Positions 967 through 60,370 of a stretch of DNA of 64,000 nucleotides are shown here, piece by piece. The DNA is taken from the NCBI RefSeq assembly GCF_964213995.1, contig NC_135817.1, positions 52,700,001 to 52,764,000 of the forward strand. Direction: 5' to 3'. Source of the stretch: Mustelus asterias (taxonomy: Eukaryota). The notes below the pieces were generated by a model. That model had not been told where the DNA came from, ran no database searches, and saw only the letters and a program-made list of their open reading frames with translations. Each line of letters begins with the position of its first letter. Within the stretch, counting starts at the first letter, position 1. The position numbers and the translations under genes were made by a program.

Positions 967-3030
967 CTCTCCCTTAGTCGGATTTCCTGTTTCAAGCAAA
1001 TAATCTACATGACCCTGATGTAGTCTTCCTCTAAACTTCACTAAATCTGTAAAAGCATCTAGTCTCTTTACAACAACTCCAATCACCACCGTTATCACCA
1101 TGACCTATTAACCAGCTCTGAACTCTTCAGGTTTCATGACTCATCTTCACTTTGTCTTGCTTTTCCCTTGGTTTGCTACTGGTGTTAGACTTAAGCAAAC
1201 TGAAACTTGTCCTTGGAGCATGTTTAAATGCTTACTCATAAGGTGAGCAACCTGTTGTAGACTGAGGTTAACCCATAAGGGAACAGAAAATAGTCTCATG
1301 TATTGAAGAGAGGGAAATTACAGTCTAGCTCATCACCTAGCAAAGACCTCTTCGTGATCAGTGAAATTCATTCTGCAGCATCATTCAATGCTGGGTGTGA
1401 CATAAACAATGGACTGTTATCTGACACCAACACCTCTGGCAACCCATAAGTTGCAAACCAATCTCCCAAAACCGCAATCATTTTGGCACTTATATTGGTC
1501 ATAGACCCACATGCTATAGCTGTCAACAAAAGCAAGGCACAATCCCCTTTTGATTTCAAATTCATTGATATGTACTCATTCCCACAGTTTCCTTGTGTTT
1601 GCCCATGAAAGAAAAAGAGACTTAGTTGAATAATTTCTTATTCCAAGACACACTATTCACCAATTTCTTAATATCTTCACCTACTGTTGAATACCTAAAG
1701 TAGCTTCTTGCTACTGTTTACCTCTGTGTGCTCGCAAACAATCTCATTCTAAAACTTGGTGGAATAATGACTTATAGGAGACAGTCTTGATGTGCACTCG
1801 TTTGATTTCTACGTCTGAACCACTCCTGCAATTTCTCATCACCATGGTCTTCAGTTTAAATTTTAAGTTTATTTACTAGTGTCGTAAGTAGGCTTACATT
1901 AACACTGCAATGAAATTACTGTGAAAATCCCCTACCACCACACTCCGGCGCCTGTTCGGGTACACTGAGGAAGAATTCAGCATGAACAATGCACCTAACC
2001 AGCATGTCTTTTGGACTGTGGGAGGAAACCGGAGCACCCGGAGGAAACCCACGCAGACTCCGCACAGACAGTGACCCAAGCCAGGAATCGAACCCGAGTC
2101 CCTAGCACTGTGAGGCAGCAGTGTTAACCATTGTGCCTGAGCACTTTACTGAGCAGCACATCCTTGTGGGTTTCATCACCATCTTACTCTGACATGTCAT
2201 TTGTGTATGTGAAGTAATTCCCAGTTAACTAAGTGACCAGTGAATCAATGGTCACAGGAAATCTTGAGCTGCATTCACATTAGCATGATCTGCTGACTTG
2301 TGCTTAATATTATACTGGTGGCTAGGCTTATCATTTGGTCCTCCCGGCTCAAAGTTCATGTTGTGCTCTCTTAACACTTCCTCAGTGATAAGACTTCCTG
2401 ATCCCTACTGTAAAAGAACTTGGCCCAGTTTAACCATATCATAAGTCAAAACATTTCCATTTCAGGGAGGCTTCATTCCCTCCTCCTACTTCAGATGGCA
2501 AGTAATGGGATGCTTCTTCAAATTCCACCCTCATATAACACAGCAATATTATTGTTGCAATAATAATCAGCTTCATACCAGTTTTGCATAAGAGAATGTA
2601 ATTTAGGGATTTCTTCTATGCTCTTCTGAGATAACAGACCTTGCAGCTGTATCACTGGTGAATGTAAGTTGTGAATCTCCGATATTTGCTTTTACTGGAG
2701 ACACTGGAATTGTATCTTCAGCCCTATTATTCTCATCGTCCGTGTGCTGTTTCTCTTGCTCTTGTAGAACTCTTGATCTTCCTGCTTGATAACATCACCT
2801 TCTGTTTCTATTTCCATATCTCTCCTGTGCATGTTCAAGGACCCCTGAACTAGCTTTAGATCTACCACAACGTTATCCTTGGTGCATGACTGTGACTTGG
2901 TGCTGCATTGTAACCCTGAGCATTACAGTTTCCTCTGCTGCATACCATCTTGATAGCACCCACTTTTCCACAGACTTAGCACTTTGAACATAAATCTCAC
3001 TGCAATTTTATTCTCGGTCATGCCATGTGA
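745..3030 (-). mobile_element. Decayed Gypsy-type LTR retrotransposon (gag/integrase remnants)
   Basis: Minus-strand WFATYGLPEVLVSDNSPLFMS resembles the integrase core (GLPxxxVSDNGxxF); HVDYLL resembles the integrase C-terminus; C*VCGKVGAIKMVC near 2940-2985 resembles a gag zinc knuckle. Probably continues at about 5290-5700 beyond the CR1 insertion, with a PBS-like TGACAACGAG at 5676-5685. Confidence 0.65.
1866..2137 (-). mobile_element. tRNA-derived V-SINE, tail type 2
   Basis: tRNA head, V-core GGGTTTCCTCCGGGTGCTCCGGTTTCCTCCCACAGTCC, tail ...TTGCAGTGTTAATGTAAGCCTACTT...AAATAAACTT. Confidence 0.85.
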
Positions 3031-3319
3031 GTCCAGAATTTGATTGATTTATGTGTATTTTATAATACTGGGGTTTTACAGGCAACATCGGTTAAACACT
3101 ACAGGCCGAGTATCCTTTATCTGAAACCCTTCGGGCTGATTACATTTTGGTTTCAGATCTAATATATACACAATAGGCCAACTTGCATTACAACAATCTA
3201 AGCCTAGGCTAGCTATACTCTACAAACACTAGGTAGTTTCTCCATTTGCCGAATCTTTCCATGCCTGTTTCTTACCTTTTAACGCTTCTTACATCTGTAA
3301 TATAATACTGCATGTAGGA

Positions 3320-45448: not shown

Positions 45449-45612
45449 TGCTAGATTCCTTTAAGATGCCTTTGATATATGGGATTAGTGTCGCCTTATT
45501 GATTGGAATTCTCGCCTGTGCAATCGGAAAGTGTGCCTCTCGGTACTGCTCTGGGGAGAGAATTACGCCAAGATACGAGCAACACAGGTTAATCCCGATG
45601 GGCACGGACTGA
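45449..45612 (+). CDS. PTGFRN: PTGFRN exon 9 coding part (TM helix + cytoplasmic tail, stop TGA)
   Basis: Long polypyrimidine tract + catcag|TG; VLDSFKMPLIYGISVALLIGILACAIGKCASRYC...RLIPMGTD*, a hydrophobic helix with juxtamembrane Cys. Exons 2-9 total 2579 nt and stay in frame. Confidence 0.92.
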
Positions 45613-48600
45613 GACGATCTCTTGCAGTATTGCAGGGTGACCATTGGATGAACTGCGGAAACTACCTACTCTCTGCAACTTGGGGAGGAAGAAAAAGCAG
45701 ATGTTGAGGAGGTGTCCTGTCTTTTTTAGAATGTTAACATGTGCAATGATTGTAATTTTGTTTTTTTTTTAAAAAAGCCATGTTCCGGTATTCGAGTGGG
45801 GTAAAAACACTTTGTGGGAATGTCAGTGTGATTTTTGTTAATTATTTCTTATGTGCAGCAAGTGATATTTTAGAGATACTGCCAGTGTTTCTCAACATCT
45901 GACCATCTCTGCGTAGAGAAGATAAAACACCAGCGACGTTTTCTTGGTCTCTGCTGGTCAGTCACCATTACTGTGGTTTCAGGTTATCATTGGGTTCAGG
46001 CTGTAAACTGGATATTGTTCTCTTGAGTAGTAATGTGGATGGGGATTTTGTTCTGTGATATTCAAGTTCAAAATTGCAGTGAAATATCAATTCGGGCAGA
46101 GTGCTGAGTTCGACCAGCTTGCTTACAAAGGCTGAAATCAGTAAAATGAACAATGTTAACACCATTCTGGAAAGCATGGATAAAAGACTGGCTGGCTCGA
46201 AAGGGAGACCAATGGTTTCTCTGCTATACAGACTTGTAACAGAAGATATTATTTCTGGAGCGTTTAGAGGGAGGGGCAGAGGTTCCATCATGTACAATGC
46301 ATTCCCAAGACCCTATTGAGAGGGAATAACTGCTGTCTTTGAACTTGCAGGGGTTGAAATTTACCCAAAAGGGAGATTGAACTTGACGCAGCCCACTCCA
46401 GTGCAGTACAATTCTATCTGATCTTGGTACAAAAACATTTACTTTGGCATCAGTATAGTTTATGTAAATTAAGGCGAGGTTGCAATTAATGCAGTTTCAA
46501 AGAAAAATGAAACGGTCAGACTAAATTGTTGACTGCTGCTGAAGCAAGTAATTCCGTGTGATGTAGCATCGCCCAATAAATCCTGATCTTCTTACACTTG
46601 CTACATACAACACATTTTTTTGAACTATAATTTTTTAAAAAATTTTTTCAACGCTCAGAGGTGGGCTGTTTTTTAAGCAATTTTCATTGCCCAGTCCTTT
46701 ATTGGCACTCCAGTGGAAGACAGTTTTACCCCTGGTTAAGCAGTTATAAAAACAGACATGCTTCCAGGTTTATCTCACAATGTTATTACTTATACCGGAG
46801 GCACAGAATGAGGAGCCTCATTGATTGTCTCTTCCTCCTGTTTGGCACGCTGAGGGGCAGGTGGGGAATAAGATCGATGGCTTTCTCTCTCTCGATAACT
46901 GGCCTAAATTAGGTGCTCTGCATGGAAAAGTGAAACTGAGTGAAAGAGGCCCATTCCGCCCCGAACAACACTATATGGATTTTCCTCTTGCCCTAGCTGG
47001 GAAGGCAGCCGGCTGCCCCTTCATCACCTCACCGCATTAATGATGGCAGAGGAAGAAGCCCAAGAAATCCGCCCAATTTTCCTGGATTCTATTGCTACAG
47101 ATGCTGATGCCTGCTAGGAGATGGCTAATAGTAGAGAACTTGGGGCAGCATTGCCAGGCCTGTTGAAACTGTTCCTGGAGGGAATGGGGCCCAGTAGTGG
47201 AAGCCTCTCTTTCTCCTTGGGCCTATAACTTTGTCAACTGGTGCACTGCAGTATCATCATTCCCTCCTGGTAGTAGCAGGCTCACTTTTGCTGCCAGAAA
47301 CCATGCCTGCATTGCTCAACCCATTAAAATGCAAGGCCAGCCTCATACATTCCTCAGGCAATGAACCTACCCTGGAGGGAAATTTAGGCCTCTCAATATT
47401 TGTACAACCGTGCAATGGCCATACATGGCTGGCCTCTCACTTGCAGGATAAGTGAAGCATGTTAATTAACAGCCTCAATGGGAGAAAACAATCAAGTACA
47501 ACACAGATTTTCTATCATCTCCGGTACATTATTAAGAAGCAAATAATTGTTTTGTGCTTGGGGTGTGTATGCAGTTTTGTTTTATACAAGTTAACAAACA
47601 AGCCAAGTGCCAAAGTCATTTAGTGAGAATTACTGCCGTAACACTGCAAAAAGTCTTTTCAACTATTTCATTGAATGACTGAAATACACTCCAGTAAAAT
47701 TTAGGATTTTTAAATTAATTTTGCTTTGAATTTTGTTTAAAGGACTGGCTGTTTATACAATGGCACTTGAACCTGCAATGTTAATGACTAATCACAACCA
47801 CTATCTGATCTCCAATAGTTCACCTAATTCTGTTCATTTGTTTTCAGGGAATCTCTTCCTTGAGATCCTTGAAAGTGTATATCAGACATACACTGGCAAT
47901 ACAGTTAACTAATCTGTGTGTTCTGATACTTTGTTACTTCGGATTTCCAAATTGTGCATTTGTCTTTTATTTAGTGTCAAATAATCAATGATTTTAGATG
48001 ATACAATGAACCAGTCAGCCATTTTGAAATACACCATATCAGAATTAATCTCCTGATGGATTTTGCTGGAATTTTGTATGCACTGGAGCTGAGATCCAAG
48101 GCATGTGTTTGAAACATTCAAATTTCCATCCCCACACTTCTTTAGTCGTGAAATTGAACTATTTTTGTGTGGCTTTGCTGTTGACACTTGCAGAATGTGA
48201 CAAAGAAGTTTTTTTTTTCCTCTAGCAATTTTCTTTTACAAGGAAGCAGCATATTGAATTCTTAAGATGGTCAATTTGCATGGGCGGCACAGTGGTTAGC
48301 ACTGTTGCCTCACAGTGCCGGGGACCCGGGTTCAATTCCGGCCGCAAGTGACTGTCTGTGTGGAGTTTGCACATTCTCCTCGTGTCTGCATGGGTTTCCT
48401 CCGGGTGCTCCCGTTTCTTCCCACAGACCAAAGATGTGCGGGTTAGGTTGATTGGCCATGCTAAATTGCCTCGTAATGTCAGGGGGGGTTTAGCAGGATA
48501 AATATGTGGGGCTACGGGGATGGGGCCTAGGTGGGATTGTTGTCGGCACAGGCTTGGTGGACCAAATGGCATCCTTCTGCACTATAGGGATTCTATGATT

Positions 48601-50884: not shown

Positions 50885-51700
50885 GTCCTTTTTTATTCAT
50901 TTACAGGATGTGGGCAGTGCTGACTAGGCCAGCATTTATTGCCTATCCTGAGTTGCCCTTCAGAAGATAGTGATGAGCTGCCTTTTAAAACAGATGTAGT
51001 CCCTGAGGTGTAGGTACAACCACAGTGCTGTTGAGCAACTGTGAAGGTGATATATTTCTAAGTGAGGATGGTGAGTGACTTGTAGCGGAACCTCCAGATG
51101 ATGATATTCCCAGGCATCTGCTTCTCTTGTCCTTCTAGATGGTAGTGGTTGTGGATTTGGAAGGTGCTGTCCAAGGAGCCTTGGTGTGTTCCTATAGTGA
51201 ATCTTGAGGATGGTACACATTGTTGCCACTGTTCGTGAGTTTGTTTGTGGAAGGGGTAGCAATCAAGCGGGCTGCTTTGTCCTGGATGTTGTTGGAGCTG
51301 CACTCATCCAGGCAAGTGGGGACTATTCCATCCCACTCCTGATATGTGCCTTGTAGATGGTGAACAGGCTTTGGAGGGGGTCACTGCAGAATTCCTAGCC
51401 TTTGACCTGCATTAATGCCTGGTCCAGTTCAGTGTCTGGTCAGTGGTTCCACCACCAACACCCCCCCACCCCCCCCGGATGTTGATAATTGGGAATTCAA
51501 TATTAAATATCAATGGGTGATGATTCGATTCTCCCTTGTTGGAGATGGTCATTGCCTGGCACTTTTGTGGTGCAAATTTTACTTGCCACTTGTCAGCCCA
51601 AGCCTTTCTGCATTTGGACATGGACTGCTTCAGTATCTGAGGAGTTGTAAATGGTGCTGAACGTTGTGCAATCATCAGTGTACATCCCAGTTTTGACTTT
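50885..51700 (-). mobile_element. CR1/L2-group LINE family C 3' fragment
   Basis: AWADKWQVKFAPQKCQAMTISNK; tail GGCAATAAATGCTGGCCTAGTCAGCACTGCCCACATCC shared with SINE family C. Confidence 0.85.
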
Positions 51701-51899: not shown

Positions 51900-52690
51900 A
51901 GTGGGGCACAGCTATGGAGTTATTTGAAAACGCAAATGAGAATTTAAAAATTGAGGTGTTTGGCAGGGAGCCAATGTAAGTCAACGAGATCGGGGGTAAT
52001 TGTTAGGACATGGGCAACAGAGTTTTGGATGACTTCAAGTTTACAGAACTTTACAGGTAGAAATGTGAGAGACCAGCCAGGAGCGTGTTGGATTAATCAA
52101 GACAGGTTTTGAAGCCTGAATGATAGTTGCAACAGCAGATAAACTGAGGCAGGAACAAAGTCAGGCAGGAACAAAGTCAACCAATGTTATGGATGTGCAA
52201 ATAGGCAGTCATAGTGACGCTGCAAATATGTGGTCAAATATCTTTGTGTCAAATATTATGCGGAGTTTGTAAATAGTCTGGTTCAGCATCAGACAGTTGT
52301 CAGGGAGAGGGATGGAGTCAGTAGCTAGGGAATGGAGTTTGGAATGGGGATGAAAATAATGACTTCAATCTTTCCAATATGTGGAGGAACCTTCTGCTCT
52401 GTTAAACAGTCTGCCAAATCCTCCACTGCTGTTACATTATCAATGAGGTAAAGATGGGTGTCATTAGCGCGCATGTGAAAACTAACATGTTATCCATTTA
52501 CATCACCAGAAAAAATAGTGGGAGAGGGAAGAGATGACATGGATGAGGAGTCTCAGGCTATGATTAGATACATAATAAAGGAAGCCAGGTGAGTACAGAC
52601 CCACCTAACCATTCACAGTGGAGAGGCATTGGAGGAGGATGGTATGATCAACCATGCCAAGGGCTGAAGACAGATCGAAGAGGATAAGGA
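51900..52690 (-). mobile_element. Decayed L2-like LINE fragment
   Basis: Pyrimidine-rich minus strand with L2-like RT remnants; no open frame. Confidence 0.45.
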
Positions 52691-52971
52691 ACAATAGTTT
52701 GGCTGAAAAGTGGCAAGTAACATTCATGCCATAAGTGCCAGGCAACTATCATCTCCAACAAGACAGTATCAAACCATCACCTCATGACGTTCAATGGCAT
52801 TACCAAATACTGAATCCCCCACTATCAACATCCTGGGGGTTACTGTTGACCAAAATCTGAACTGGACTAGCCATGTAAATATTGTGGCCACAAGGACAAA
52901 TCAAAGGCTAGGAATCTTGCAGTGGGTAACTCGCCTCCTGACTCCCTAAAGCTTGTCCACTATCTACAAGG

Positions 52972-53991
52972 CCAAAATTGGCTTGTTAGTAGGAGGCAAA
53001 GGGTGATGGTGGAAGGTTGTTTTTGTGATTGGAAGCCTGTGACCAGTGGTGCTGGGACCCTTGTGGTTTGTTATATACATTAAAGACTTGGATGTGAATG
53101 TAGAAGGTGAAATTATTTCATGCCGATGGCATGAAAATTGCTGGTGGTGTTGATAGTGAGGAAGATAGTCTTAGGCTATAGACTGATATTGATCAGCTGG
53201 TAAGTTGGGCAGAGAAATAGCAGATGGAATTTAATCCTGATAAGAATGAGGTAATGCATTTTTGGAGGTCTAAAACAGATAGGATATACACAATGAACAG
53301 TAGGTCCCTAGAGAATATTGAGGATCAAAGGGAACTTGGTGTGCAAGCCACAGAACCCTGAAGGTGACAGCAGAGGTAGATAGGGTGGTGAAGAAGGCAT
53401 ACAGAATGCCTCCATCAGCCAGTGCATAGAATTAGGAGCAGGGAGGTCTTGGTACAACTTTATAAAACATTGGTTAGGCCACAGATGGAATATTGTGTGC
53501 TGTTCTGGTCACCACACTATTGGAAGGGTATGATTGCACTGAAGGAGGTGCAGAGGAGATTCACCAGGATGTTGCCTGGGATGGAAAGTTCCAGCAAGAG
53601 GAGAGACTGGATAGGCTGGGTTTGTTTTCCCTGGAGCAGAGGAGGCTGAGGGAGAGGGAGGAGGCATTGATATGGTAGATCATAAGATTTTTTCCCCCAT
53701 GGCAGAGATGTCTAAGTCCAGAGGGCATAGGTTTAAAGTGAGGAGTAAATGGTTTAAAGGGATCTGAAGAAAAACCTTTTCCCCGAAAGGGTGATGGAAA
53801 TATGGAACATGCTGCCTGAGAGGGTGGTGGAGGTAACATTTAAGAAGCAGCTGGATGAGCACTTAAATTGCCAAGGCATAGTAGGTTATGGACCAAGGGC
53901 TGGTAAATGAGATTAGTATCGACTGGTATTTGATGGTCAGCATAGATCTGGTGGGTCCAAAAAGCCTGTTTCTGTGCTGTATGACTCTATG
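52972..53991 (+). mobile_element. CR1 LINE 3' fragment nested in family C LINE
   Basis: LVQLYKTLVRPQMEYCVLFWSPHY...QRRFTRMLPG; tail CTGTGCTGTATGACTCTATGA. Confidence 0.9.
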
Positions 53992-54078
53992 AAAAGTCAG
54001 GAGTATGATGGAATATCCTCTACTTGCCTGGGTGAGTGCCGTTCCACCAATACTCAAAAGCTTGACACTGTAGGACAA

Positions 54079-55040
54079 TGGTATTCATGATGTGGAGATG
54101 CCGGCGTTGGACTGGGGTAAACACAGTAAGAAGTTTAACAACACCAGGTTAAAGTCCAACAGGTTTATTTGGTAGCAAAAGCCACACAAGCTTTCGAGGC
54201 TCTGAGCCCCTTCTTCAGGTGAGTGGGAATTCTGTTCACAGACAGAACTTATAAAGATACAGACTCAATTTACATGAATAATGGTTGGAATGCGAATACT
54301 TACAACTAATCCAGTCTTTAAGAAACAAAACAATGGGAGTGGAGAGAGCATCAAGACAGGCTAAAAAGATGTGTATTGTCTCCAGACAAGACAGCCAGTG
54401 AAACTCTGCAGGTCCACGCAACTGTGGGAGTTACAAATAGTGTGACATAAACCCAATATCCCGGTTGAGGCCGTCCTTGTGTGTGCGGAACTTGGCTATC
54501 AGTTTCTGCTCAGCGACTCTGCGCTGTCGTGTGTCGCGAAGGCCGCCTTGGAGAACGCTTACCCGAATATCAGAGGCCGGGCATTCGGCCTCTGATATTC
54601 GGGTAAGCGTTCTCCAAGGCGGCCTTCGCGACACACGACAGCGCAGAGTCGCTGAGCAGAAACTGATAGCCAAGTTCCGCACACACAAGGACGGCCTCAA
54701 CCGGGATATTGGGTTTATGTCACACTATTTGTAACTCCCACAGTTGCGTGGACCTGCAGAGTTTCACTGGCTGTCTTGTCTGGAGACAATACACATCTTT
54801 TTAGCCTGTCTTGATGCTCTCTCCACTCCCATTGTTTTGTTTCTTAAAGACTGGATTAGTTGTAAGTATTCGCATTCCAACCATTATTCATGTAAATTGA
54901 GTCTGTGTCTTTATAAGTTCTGTTTGTGAACAGAATTCCCACTCACCTGAAGAAGGGGCTCAGAGCCTCAAGCTTGTGTGGCTTTTGCTACCAAATAAAC
55001 CTGTTGGACTTTAACCTGGTGTTGTTAAACTTCTTACTGT
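54079..55040. mobile_element. Penelope-like element (GIY-YIG C-terminus + pseudo-LTR) as a fold-back palindrome
   Basis: Arms 54123-54579 and 54586-55040 with a 6-nt loop GGCATT. Each arm encodes ASDIRVSVLQGGLRDTRQRRVAEQKLIAKFRTHKDGLNRDIGF*, the typical PLE endonuclease end (E..LI......GLN.D). ACTGTAGGACAA is duplicated at 54067-54078 and 55036-55047. Confidence 0.92.
54182..54227 (-). ncRNA. Minimal hammerhead-ribozyme-like motif in PLE pseudo-LTR
   Basis: Minus strand reads CCCACUCAC-CUGAAGA-A-GGGGC-UCAGA-GCCUC-GAAA-GCUU-GUGUGG: CUGANGA and GAAA cores, 5-bp stem II, palindromic AGCU mini stem III, CAC/GUG stem I. Confidence 0.65.
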
Positions 55041-56084
55041 AGGACAAAGCAGCCCGCCTGATTGGCACCCTTTTTCACAAACATTCATTGCCTCCACCCT
55101 GACAAACAGTGATACCATTAACAAAGTGCACTGCAGGAACCCACCAAGCCTCCTTAGACAGAACCTTCCATGACCACTACGATCTAGAAGGACAAGGGCA
55201 GTTGCTATGTGGGAACACCTGGAAGCACCGCACCATCCTGACTTGGAAATATATTGCTGTTTCTTTGCTATTGCTGGCTCAAAATCCCAGAATTCCCTCC
55301 CTAACAGCAAAATGGCTGTACCTACTCTATATGGTTTAAGGCGGTAGCTCACCACCAGTCTCTCTCTCACAATTTGGGACGGACAATAAATGCGGCCCAA
55401 TCAGTGATGGCCACAACTTGTAAATGTATATAAAAAAAGATTTAACTTTGTCACAGTCATACTGAATATCATCTGTGACTTTGATAATAGCTATTTCAAT
55501 ACCGAGGCAGGACAGAGGTGTTGAAGAAGTAGATTTGCAGTCGGGAACATAAGATGGGGGTTAAAGCTATACATTCCAGGTTGATCCTGGAATAGTGAGC
55601 AGTTTTAGTGGTCACGAGCGGGACCTGATAATGTTCTATGTGCTTCAGCCAGACCTGGCAATGAATGGCTATACCATTTGTCTGCCTTACCAGTTCAATT
55701 TGGCATGGTAATTATTTTAAGGGGTCTACGGCATCAAAGATGGTGAGGGTGTGGTTGAGCAGATCAGTTGCTACGGAAATGTTCCCATGAACCGAGAGCC
55801 TAAAAGTTAAATAGTTGGGGCGAAACATGGTCCACTATACTTCTCGCCAGAAGGCCACCTTGTTTACCTGGCTGTGCTTCAGCTGCTGCCTGGGGCTCTC
55901 CTGCCAACTGTAAAATTCCAGTCCGTGCAGGAAAGGGGCTTATCTCTACTGGCTTACTGCCTTGCTAAAAATAACTCCGAGGCAGGATGGTGCCTGCAAA
56001 TTGGCAAACCAGCCAGGAAATTGCATACCTCCTGCCTCCATCAGCCTCCCAAAACACAGGAAATTCTGAAGGGACTTAGTGTAA

Positions 56085-59541: not shown

Positions 59542-59746
59542 CATATAAAGACACAAACTCAATTGAGTTTGTGTCTTTATATGCCCTGTTTGTGAACAGA
59601 ACTCCCACTCACCTGAAGAAGAGGCTTGGGGCTCCGAAAGCTTGTGTGGCTTTTGCTACCAAATAAACCTGTTGGACTTTAACCTGGTGTTGTTAAACTT
59701 CTTACTGTGTTTACCCCAGTCCAACGCCGGCATCTCCACATCATGA
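59542..59746 (+). mobile_element. Penelope-like pseudo-LTR (same family as the 54-55 kb element) with 42-bp perfect 5' palindrome
   Basis: 59561-59746 matches the palindrome arm including the tail GTTTACCCCAGTCCAACGCCGGCATCTCCACATCATGA; CTGAAGA at 59613-59619 and GAAA at 59636-59639; 59542-59583 is self-complementary. Confidence 0.9.
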
Positions 59747-60370
59747 TAACTTAATTGACAGAGACAATCGATTACCTGGAAAGAGATATGGATTAGACCA
59801 TGATAGGTTTGTTCTATTCTTTGCAAGCTGATGTTGATTACTGCAGCCTGTAATTTAGTGACTGGATCAGACAAGTAATACTTAATTCACAAATGCATCA
59901 GTGTTACGATGGTTAATTTGTTTTGCGTCAGTTTTATTCAGTGCGCTCGCATTAGTGTAGATAGGAGCTGAGGCTGTTTTCCATTCAGTTTTGTGATGAC
60001 AGCAAATGCAGAGCCATCAAAGATGGGTTGGATGTGCTTGTAGACAGGTGCATGGTGTGTGGTAAATAAACTTAGTGAACTGCAGGCTCAACTGCAAGTT
60101 GCTCCCTGGGGCTCAGACATAGTGGTAATGGCGAACACCTAGGCTAAAAGAAGGGGAAAAGGGAACTTCATATTCCTGGCTACAAGGTACAACAACAACA
60201 ACTTGTGTTTATGTAGTATCTTTAATGTAATGAATGGCACTTCACAGGAACTTTATGAAGCAAAATTTGGCATCAAGTCAAATAAAGCAGATAGCCAAAA
60301 GCTTGGTCAAAGACGTAAGCTTTAAAAACCATTTTGAGGAAAGAGTAGAGAGACATGTTTAAGGAGGATT

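Follow-up and report, generated by a model that had tools for sequence, protein, structure and literature searches.

The window analysed here (the whole 64,000-nt stretch of DNA) contains a near-perfect palindrome of 918 bases, formed by a left arm of 457 nt (54123-54579, minus strand) and a right arm of 455 nt (54586-55040, plus strand) around a 6-nt loop (54580-54585). Both arms are 5'-truncated copies of a Penelope-like element (PLE). The left arm holds the final 48 codons of the GIY-YIG domain and the pLTR, and the right arm the end of the ORF (stop codon at 54732-54734) and the pLTR. Two private substitutions in the left arm, at 54241 and 54258, and the loss of 2 nt from the right arm set the two arms apart; the innermost 321 bp are identical. 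This divergence (2 in 433 bp) is typical of the family (4.5 per kb), and the two arms match each other at all 16 of 16 subfamily sites. Only the left arm carries a tail of 44 nt (54079-54122, minus strand), which runs from the end of the pLTR into the first codons of the element's ORF; the family mode is shorter, at 35-37 nt. At the apex (54578-54585, plus strand), the loop and a 2-nt CG microhomology belong natively to the right arm, whose own sequence continues through the loop, and a native, imperfect hairpin underlies this apex. The right arm is tail-less and the longer of the two, the tailed left arm being the shorter.

The insertion is bounded by a 12-nt target-site duplication with copies at 54067-54078 and 55036-55047 (both plus strand). 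The first 5 nt of the right copy also match the end of the element, a microhomology of 5 nt against a family mean of 1.3. Outside the duplication, TG at 54063-54064 and CA at 55050-55051 (both plus strand) form the left and right halves of the symmetric motif that the family targets, TG-N2-[duplication]-N2-CA; the target at this locus reads TG-AC-[12]-AG-CA and so fits the family rule. The host is an older LINE, and both flanks continue one LINE copy. Among the sampled loci, four paralogous LINE copies are collinear across the site, with anchor gaps of 14, 14, 14 and 9 nt compared with 12 nt here. At 54067-54071 the host LINE is 2 nt shorter than its paralogues, which accounts for both the N16 spacing and the 5 nt shared with the element end. 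Upstream, at a distance of 1-4 kb, there is a further copy of the host LINE in inverted orientation, older and with parts deleted (51010-51600 versus 52700-55330, 70-90% alike).

Two samples of the organism that matches best yielded short-read contigs that cross the left junction without any difference (X1, 53965-54103; X3, 53952-54102). These contigs hold 24-25 letters of the element against a bridging bar of 31, and X1 may be the assembly's own sample. None of the contigs listed crosses the right junction, and neither an empty allele nor an orthologous empty site was seen among them, contigs of this kind being unable to show absence. The earlier note had described the palindrome with these arms, loop and mismatches and a perfect core of about 320 bp, a tail of about 44 nt on the left arm only, and a repeat on both sides within an older LINE, with its first 5 nt common to the element end; all its coordinates hold, and its reading of a single young insertion agrees with our results. 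The insertion is a dead, 5'-truncated, head-to-head copy. Because the inverted layout has already been published for PLEs, there is nothing out of the ordinary about the locus itself.

Upstream of the insertion, a plus-strand gene with Ig-type exons stops at 45612, at a distance of 8.47 kb. The previously noted spacing of about 8.5 kb is correct. The name given to this gene in the earlier note, PTGFRN, is presumably right; a search with an Ig exon gave weak PDB matches only. AATAAA occurs at 46575, about 1 kb past the stop, and at 52574; given the former, transcripts reaching 54 kb would not be the default expectation, and the dsRNA hairpin that the earlier note raised as a potential endo-siRNA or ADAR substrate is hypothetical. 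As RNA, the palindrome unit is computed to fold into a very stable hairpin, and as DNA a palindrome can plausibly form a cruciform. A microRNA or hairpin-RNA gene was rejected, since Rfam mir-3199 scored 73 bits against a gathering threshold of 100 and other miRNA models also fell below their cut-offs, scores of the sort that any perfect stem would obtain.

The assignment to PLEs, likewise anticipated, is secured by sister copies. The 50-aa peptide of the window, encoded by the final 50 codons of the right arm, is identical at 50 of 50 positions to the C-terminus of the 892-aa ORF of sister copy L031. This ORF contains a reverse transcriptase (RT; Pfam RVT_1, E = 4.7e-9, above the cut-off), a DKG motif and, at its C-terminus, a GIY-YIG endonuclease (EN) with internal cysteines and the CCHH motif, and in both L031 and L032 a C-x4-C-xx-C linker directly precedes the EN. 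Pfam searches with the window's 50-aa and 97-aa peptides gave no significant match, and no solved structure matched the full 892-aa ORF. Neptune and Nematis elements are defined by a CX2-5CxxC Zn-finger-like linker between RT and EN (PMC8557442, in the portion of its text covered). With its CX4CxxC linker, the family is predicted to be a Neptune/Nematis-type PLE by the definitions in that text, the assignment being to the two jointly; the Penelope/Poseidon clade, in which the linker Zn finger is absent, was ruled out by the linker in the sister copies. The pLTRs form partial tandems in L031, L032 and L035, and inverted 5' copies with a one-sided tail are found as well. Uninterrupted full-length 892-aa ORFs occur within the partial tandems of L031 (910-3648) and L032 (1699-4437), and the family may still be active.

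The pLTR of the left arm contains an intact minimal hammerhead-like motif (54185-54221, minus strand), with a CUGAAGA core, a stem II that folds, a GAAA box and a palindromic helix III. The core boxes and helix III were recognized by eye, on the CUGAAGA/GAAA consensus that we take to characterize the hammerhead core; Rfam gave no hammerhead match. The corresponding motif of the right arm (54944-54978, plus strand) has lost some of its GAAA box to the private 2-nt deletion, and on this presumed core it is predicted to be inactive. The hammerhead architecture is as in the covered part of PMC4209133.

To characterize the family, sister copies were gathered by protein and pattern searches of the genome. 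The copies sampled are young ones picked by exact match, and most come from contigs C1-C3. Complex chains were left out, as were loci truncated by the fetch window, pairs whose arms share <90% identity and duplicate loci. Of the inverted insertions, 94 have a duplication that measures 10 nt or more; it is 12 nt long in 40 of them and 12-14 nt long in 78. At the 40 sites with 12-nt duplications, T (33) and G (36) are preferred at positions -4/-3, and C (39) and A (37) at +3/+4. TG-N16-CA is centred on the duplication at 62 of the 94 sites (1.6% in the shifted-position control); spacings of N17, N15 and N14 were found in 18, 10 and 10 cases, and about a third of the sites do not fit exact N16.

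The ends of the insertions are just as regular. With the cut site set by the motif (57 motif-fitting pairs of 104 examined), no-tail ends lie at reference positions 3016-3022 in 53 of 57 cases and tail ends at 3052-3059 in 51 of 56. These two clusters, the pLTR end and the tail end, are about 38 nt apart, and each insertion has one of each. Microhomology with the target averages 1.3 nt at no-tail ends and 1.1 nt at tail ends, against about 0.33 nt expected for random bases by our own arithmetic, and both element ends join the target mostly without extra bases. The polarity is head-to-head for all 33 of 33 opposite-strand neighbours among 150 protein matches, and the first 100 end-motif matches include 28 '-/+' pairs and zero '+/-' pairs. 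Of 28 pairs, 25 have a single exact match to the tail, 3 have none and 0 have two, and 44 of 47 complete pairs have one tailed and one tail-less end. In L004, L063, L079 and L093, one arm extends barely beyond the tail (5' end at reference 2864-3015) compared with up to 1.5 kb for the other arm; each of these pairs still lies within a single duplication of 12-13 nt.

The end of the element, taken as an exact 22-mer, is present in 63,565 copies in the 3.68-Gb genome, of which the form with the tail accounts for 25,708. In the first 11 Mb of contig C1, 51 of 83 tailed ends belong to inverted tail/no-tail pairs; this is a lower bound, because a 60-nt subfamily insertion broke segment chains and inflated the counts of 'solo' ends. 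The two arms stop within 20 nt of each other in 33 of 54 simple pattern-picked pairs, only 2 of these 33 having arms >450 bp. A rough extrapolation from one region gives ~15,800 inverted pairs genome-wide, ~9,700 of them near-symmetric. With roughly 10,000 near-symmetric palindromes so extrapolated, the structure cannot be called rare; the locus lies in the long tail of arm lengths and is not unique (the arms of L040 are 1.6 kb).

Arm lengths and apexes bear on how such pairs arise. Among 97 simple pairs, the longer arm proved to be the one without the tail in 53 and the one with it in 32, both being of equal length in 12 (P = 0.029 against 50:50). The arms stop within 10 nt of each other in 41 of these pairs, compared with a mean of 4.6 and a maximum of 14 after shuffling, whereas 46 of the 97 are asymmetric yet have the same ends. 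Loops of 0-2 nt are found in 13 of 51 near-symmetric pairs, several with a native overlap of just 2 nt, which is too tight for an intramolecular primer. The apex of the studied locus is found at 3 loci in the genome, and in all 3 the arm without a tail bears the loop. One of these loci, L051, carries in both arms a 60-nt insertion absent from the studied locus and thus has another source. Another apex recurs at 9 loci: in 4 of them the tailed arm bears the loop, in 4 the tail-less arm does (one of these with a complex junction), and 1 locus is truncated. In folding energy, the native hairpin at the studied apex ranks within the lowest 2.5% of values along the element; family-wide, native hairpins at apexes show a trend only (P = 0.095). 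The apexes of L028, L046, L179 and L197 contain 6-25 extra bases that resemble short repeated copies of nearby element sequence, and these bases look as though they arose from repeated slipping at the join.

It is also clear that the two arms generally carry the alleles of one source. Comparisons at subfamily sites show agreement in 352 of 363 cases for near-symmetric pairs and in 438 of 459 for asymmetric pairs, where random copies would predict ~128 and ~161 disagreements, respectively. At least one discordant subfamily site is present in 13 of 40 asymmetric pairs. The near-symmetric pair L030 (G000:C2:131889731-131892880) has 7 subfamily sites that are discordant between its arms, each of them in the outer pLTR, which may reflect two templates, a template switch or later conversion; origin from one RNA is therefore not universal. 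Variants common to both arms and unseen in other sampled pairs number 10 in 13.0 kb of near-symmetric and 7 in 17.5 kb of asymmetric pairs, and this approximately twofold density leans towards some self-copying in the near-symmetric class. Gene conversion was rejected as the source of the perfect inner 321 bp, since near-symmetric pairs show no excess identity near the apex (32, 20 and 18 differences in the inner, middle and outer thirds); with no homogenization there and a P of about 0.2 at the family's rate, the perfect core is attributable to chance. There was no sign of faster loss of symmetric palindromes in a small sample of 17 symmetric and 21 asymmetric pairs with at least 300 bp compared, whose arm divergence was 4.5 and 5.9 per kb, respectively (P = 0.45); symmetric pairs in this sample are no younger than asymmetric ones.

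Reading the mechanism from the finished insertions of the family, that is, from sequence, we propose that the palindrome was made by reverse transcription primed at both ends of a staggered cut, the two cDNAs being joined 3' end to 3' end (probability of about 0.65). Landing takes place in TG-N2-[12 nt]-N2-CA, and the cut would be made by a dimeric, two-fold symmetric GIY-YIG endonuclease leaving 12-nt 3' overhangs. The two-fold symmetry of the target points to a dimer, as predicted for an Anolis PLE protein in the covered part of PMC11167929, and since a target-primed duplication requires 3' overhangs, each nick would lie 2 nt 5' of CA. The pLTR-end and tail-end clusters, each with 1-3 nt of target microhomology, would represent two target-primed start sites. 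The template, given that the arms carry one source's alleles, would be either a single RNA molecule or a pair of RNAs from one locus. The arms often stop within 10 nt of each other, and at the studied locus they stop 8 nt apart, on the native imperfect hairpin and with the CG overlap; this could come about if both cDNAs ended at a common template end or pause and were then joined through microhomology and filled in by the host. A variant, in which the tail-less cDNA would fold back briefly before pairing with the tailed cDNA, would yield the same product. The near-symmetry, the hairpin apex and the shared rare variants are compatible with a common template end, with a pause site and with a brief fold-back, and do not separate the three. 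Lock-step synthesis by two RTs was rejected, as it predicts stops offset by ~38 nt and the observed offsets centre on 0.

The earlier note had instead envisaged a truncated cDNA that folded back and copied itself. In such a scheme, a single cDNA primed at the tail end would snap back at a micro-hairpin and copy itself as far as the pLTR end, and later recombination between the arms would flip the loop at random. The 41 near-symmetric pairs of 97, the hairpin under the studied apex, the recurrence of apexes at 3 and 9 loci, and the alleles shared between arms, with rare ones denser in symmetric pairs, would all be expected from it. Without flipping, however, the tail should always be on the longer arm, which is seen in 32 of 85 unequal pairs and not at this locus, where the loop is native to the tail-less arm. 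The loop-bearing strand here began at the tail-less end, so self-copying held no template for the left-arm tail. Flipping could bring the proportion to 50:50 at most, in arms only ~0.5% apart, but the tail-less arm is the longer one in significant excess. The 46 asymmetric pairs with the same ends, the loops of 0-2 nt and the microhomology at both ends are also left unexplained. We therefore consider a single self-copying cDNA unlikely, and the tail being commoner on the shorter arm (53 versus 32) counts against the original proposal. Self-priming has also been proposed for antisense RNA (PMC3846280, in the part covered): the 3' end of the transcript folds back and is extended into a hairpin, which the endonuclease resolves and integrates with a one-sided tail. 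This would account for the head-to-head polarity and the junction palindromes discussed there, and symmetric target cutting would suit the integration of a two-ended DNA. It would need many antisense RNAs with scattered 3' ends, though, and predicts neither asymmetric pairs with spacers of up to 1.7 kb, nor untemplated or copied bases at junctions, nor the two start sites on sense RNA reported in vitro in the covered text of PMC11167929, which makes it decidedly unlikely here.

Two independent RNAs, one per subunit, could each be primed at one cut end and truncated independently. L030, near-symmetric but with 7 discordant subfamily sites, and the 13 of 40 asymmetric pairs with at least one discordant site are what this would produce. 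Most pairs, however, agree at nearly all subfamily sites, and independent truncation would leave ~5 near-symmetric pairs of 97, not 41; an improbable course in this form, it would hold up only were both RNAs to derive from a single locus and to have their stop sites in common. Two further possibilities are an artefact, of assembly or of a read folding back, and a palindromic unit of the MITE kind that would move whole; long palindromes are a known source of assembly error, and 3 loci share the studied apex. The flanks are not mirrored but continue one LINE, and the duplication has the family's usual length, which excludes a fold-back read artefact; the target motif, the private arm differences, the contigs of two samples across the left junction and the different source of L051 also tell against these possibilities. 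Jointly they are barely credible. A MITE or foldback DNA transposon was also rejected on the unequal ends (the tail), the variation of the apex from copy to copy and the apex-sharing loci, only 3 and from at least two sources.

Priming from both ends of the cut resembles LINE-1 twin priming, in which both target strands prime cDNA, the cDNAs are joined head-to-head at microhomology and a target duplication results. The product differs from that of L1, whose two cDNAs are templated by different RNA segments; in the present family the same 3' part would be copied twice, once from each of two fixed start sites, and a palindrome results. An L1-type twin-priming inversion was itself rejected, since the arms overlap across the entire 3' part and are not non-overlapping RNA segments. 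Among PLEs, an inverted 5'-truncated copy with a 30-40 bp tail on one end is typical of EN+ elements (PMC8557442), and Pen2/Pen2a of Adineta vaga have the same layout with duplications of 8-10 bp or none, for which self-priming on an antisense template was proposed (PMC3846280); these papers, and PMC11167929 below, are cited for the portions of their text that were covered. The present family shares with them the head-to-head inverted copy, the one-sided tail running into the first ORF codons, the target duplication and the junction palindrome, and with Neptune/Nematis elements (PMC8557442) the RT, DKG, CX4CxxC linker and GIY-YIG domain with internal cysteines (L031). Unlike the A. vaga examples, its duplication is narrowly 12-14 nt and lies in a symmetric TG-N16-CA, and its copy number is in the tens of thousands. 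In vitro, the Poseidon PAc protein of Anolis carolinensis cuts and extends both strands, beginning at two RNA sites on either side of the tail; it is a predicted dimer, has a preference for ATT in AT-rich DNA and uses a start site without homology to the target (PMC11167929). Two end or start sites bounding the tail are common to both, and the hammerhead-like motif of the present family may correspond to the pLTR hammerhead of PAc, whereas no symmetric target motif or inverted-pair model appears in the covered text of PMC11167929. Because the Anolis enzyme belongs to another clade, with its ATT preference and non-homologous start site, its support is by analogy. Neither PLE twin priming nor a palindromic PLE target was found in the literature searched, which consisted mainly of the text of open-access papers and included parts of PMC9977147, PMC12910113 and bioRxiv 10.64898/2026.07.22.740005; the covered text of PMC8557442 calls the formation of inverted, tailed PLE insertions undefined.

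Extended to the whole family, the odds in our view slightly favour a site-selective, two-ended retrotransposon, whose dimer would read TG-N16-CA and cut with a 12-nt stagger and whose RT would start from both ends, leaving ~10,000 near-perfect palindromes, some with >1.5 kb per arm, that are tolerated without signs of faster loss or homogenization. If true, two-ended retrotransposition would account in a single step for three features of PLEs, namely the inverted copy, the one-sided tail and the target duplication. Taken singly, the locus is of minor importance; its value is as one footprint of a testable mechanism, for which the family copies give exact bench predictions: the cut sites, the length and polarity of the overhangs, the two start sites, and a tail on either arm. 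For genome writing, a retroelement whose target rule is symmetric and whose stagger is fixed would be of interest, and thousands of long near-perfect palindromes in a vertebrate genome would bear on palindrome stability and endogenous dsRNA.

The window contains a second, short insertion of the same family but another subfamily (59542-59749, plus strand), a tailed pLTR piece with a 21-nt inverted stub and zero loop; a target duplication was looked for there and not found. One subfamily is distinguished by the 60-nt insertion, which lies at the ORF stop and is bounded by a 17-nt direct repeat (L051, 1303-1370; also L215, L218 and L220); where present, it is found in both arms. Short-read contigs of organisms B and C (runs X4 and X8) include very many matches to the element end and tail with pLTR variants, so related families are abundant in relatives.
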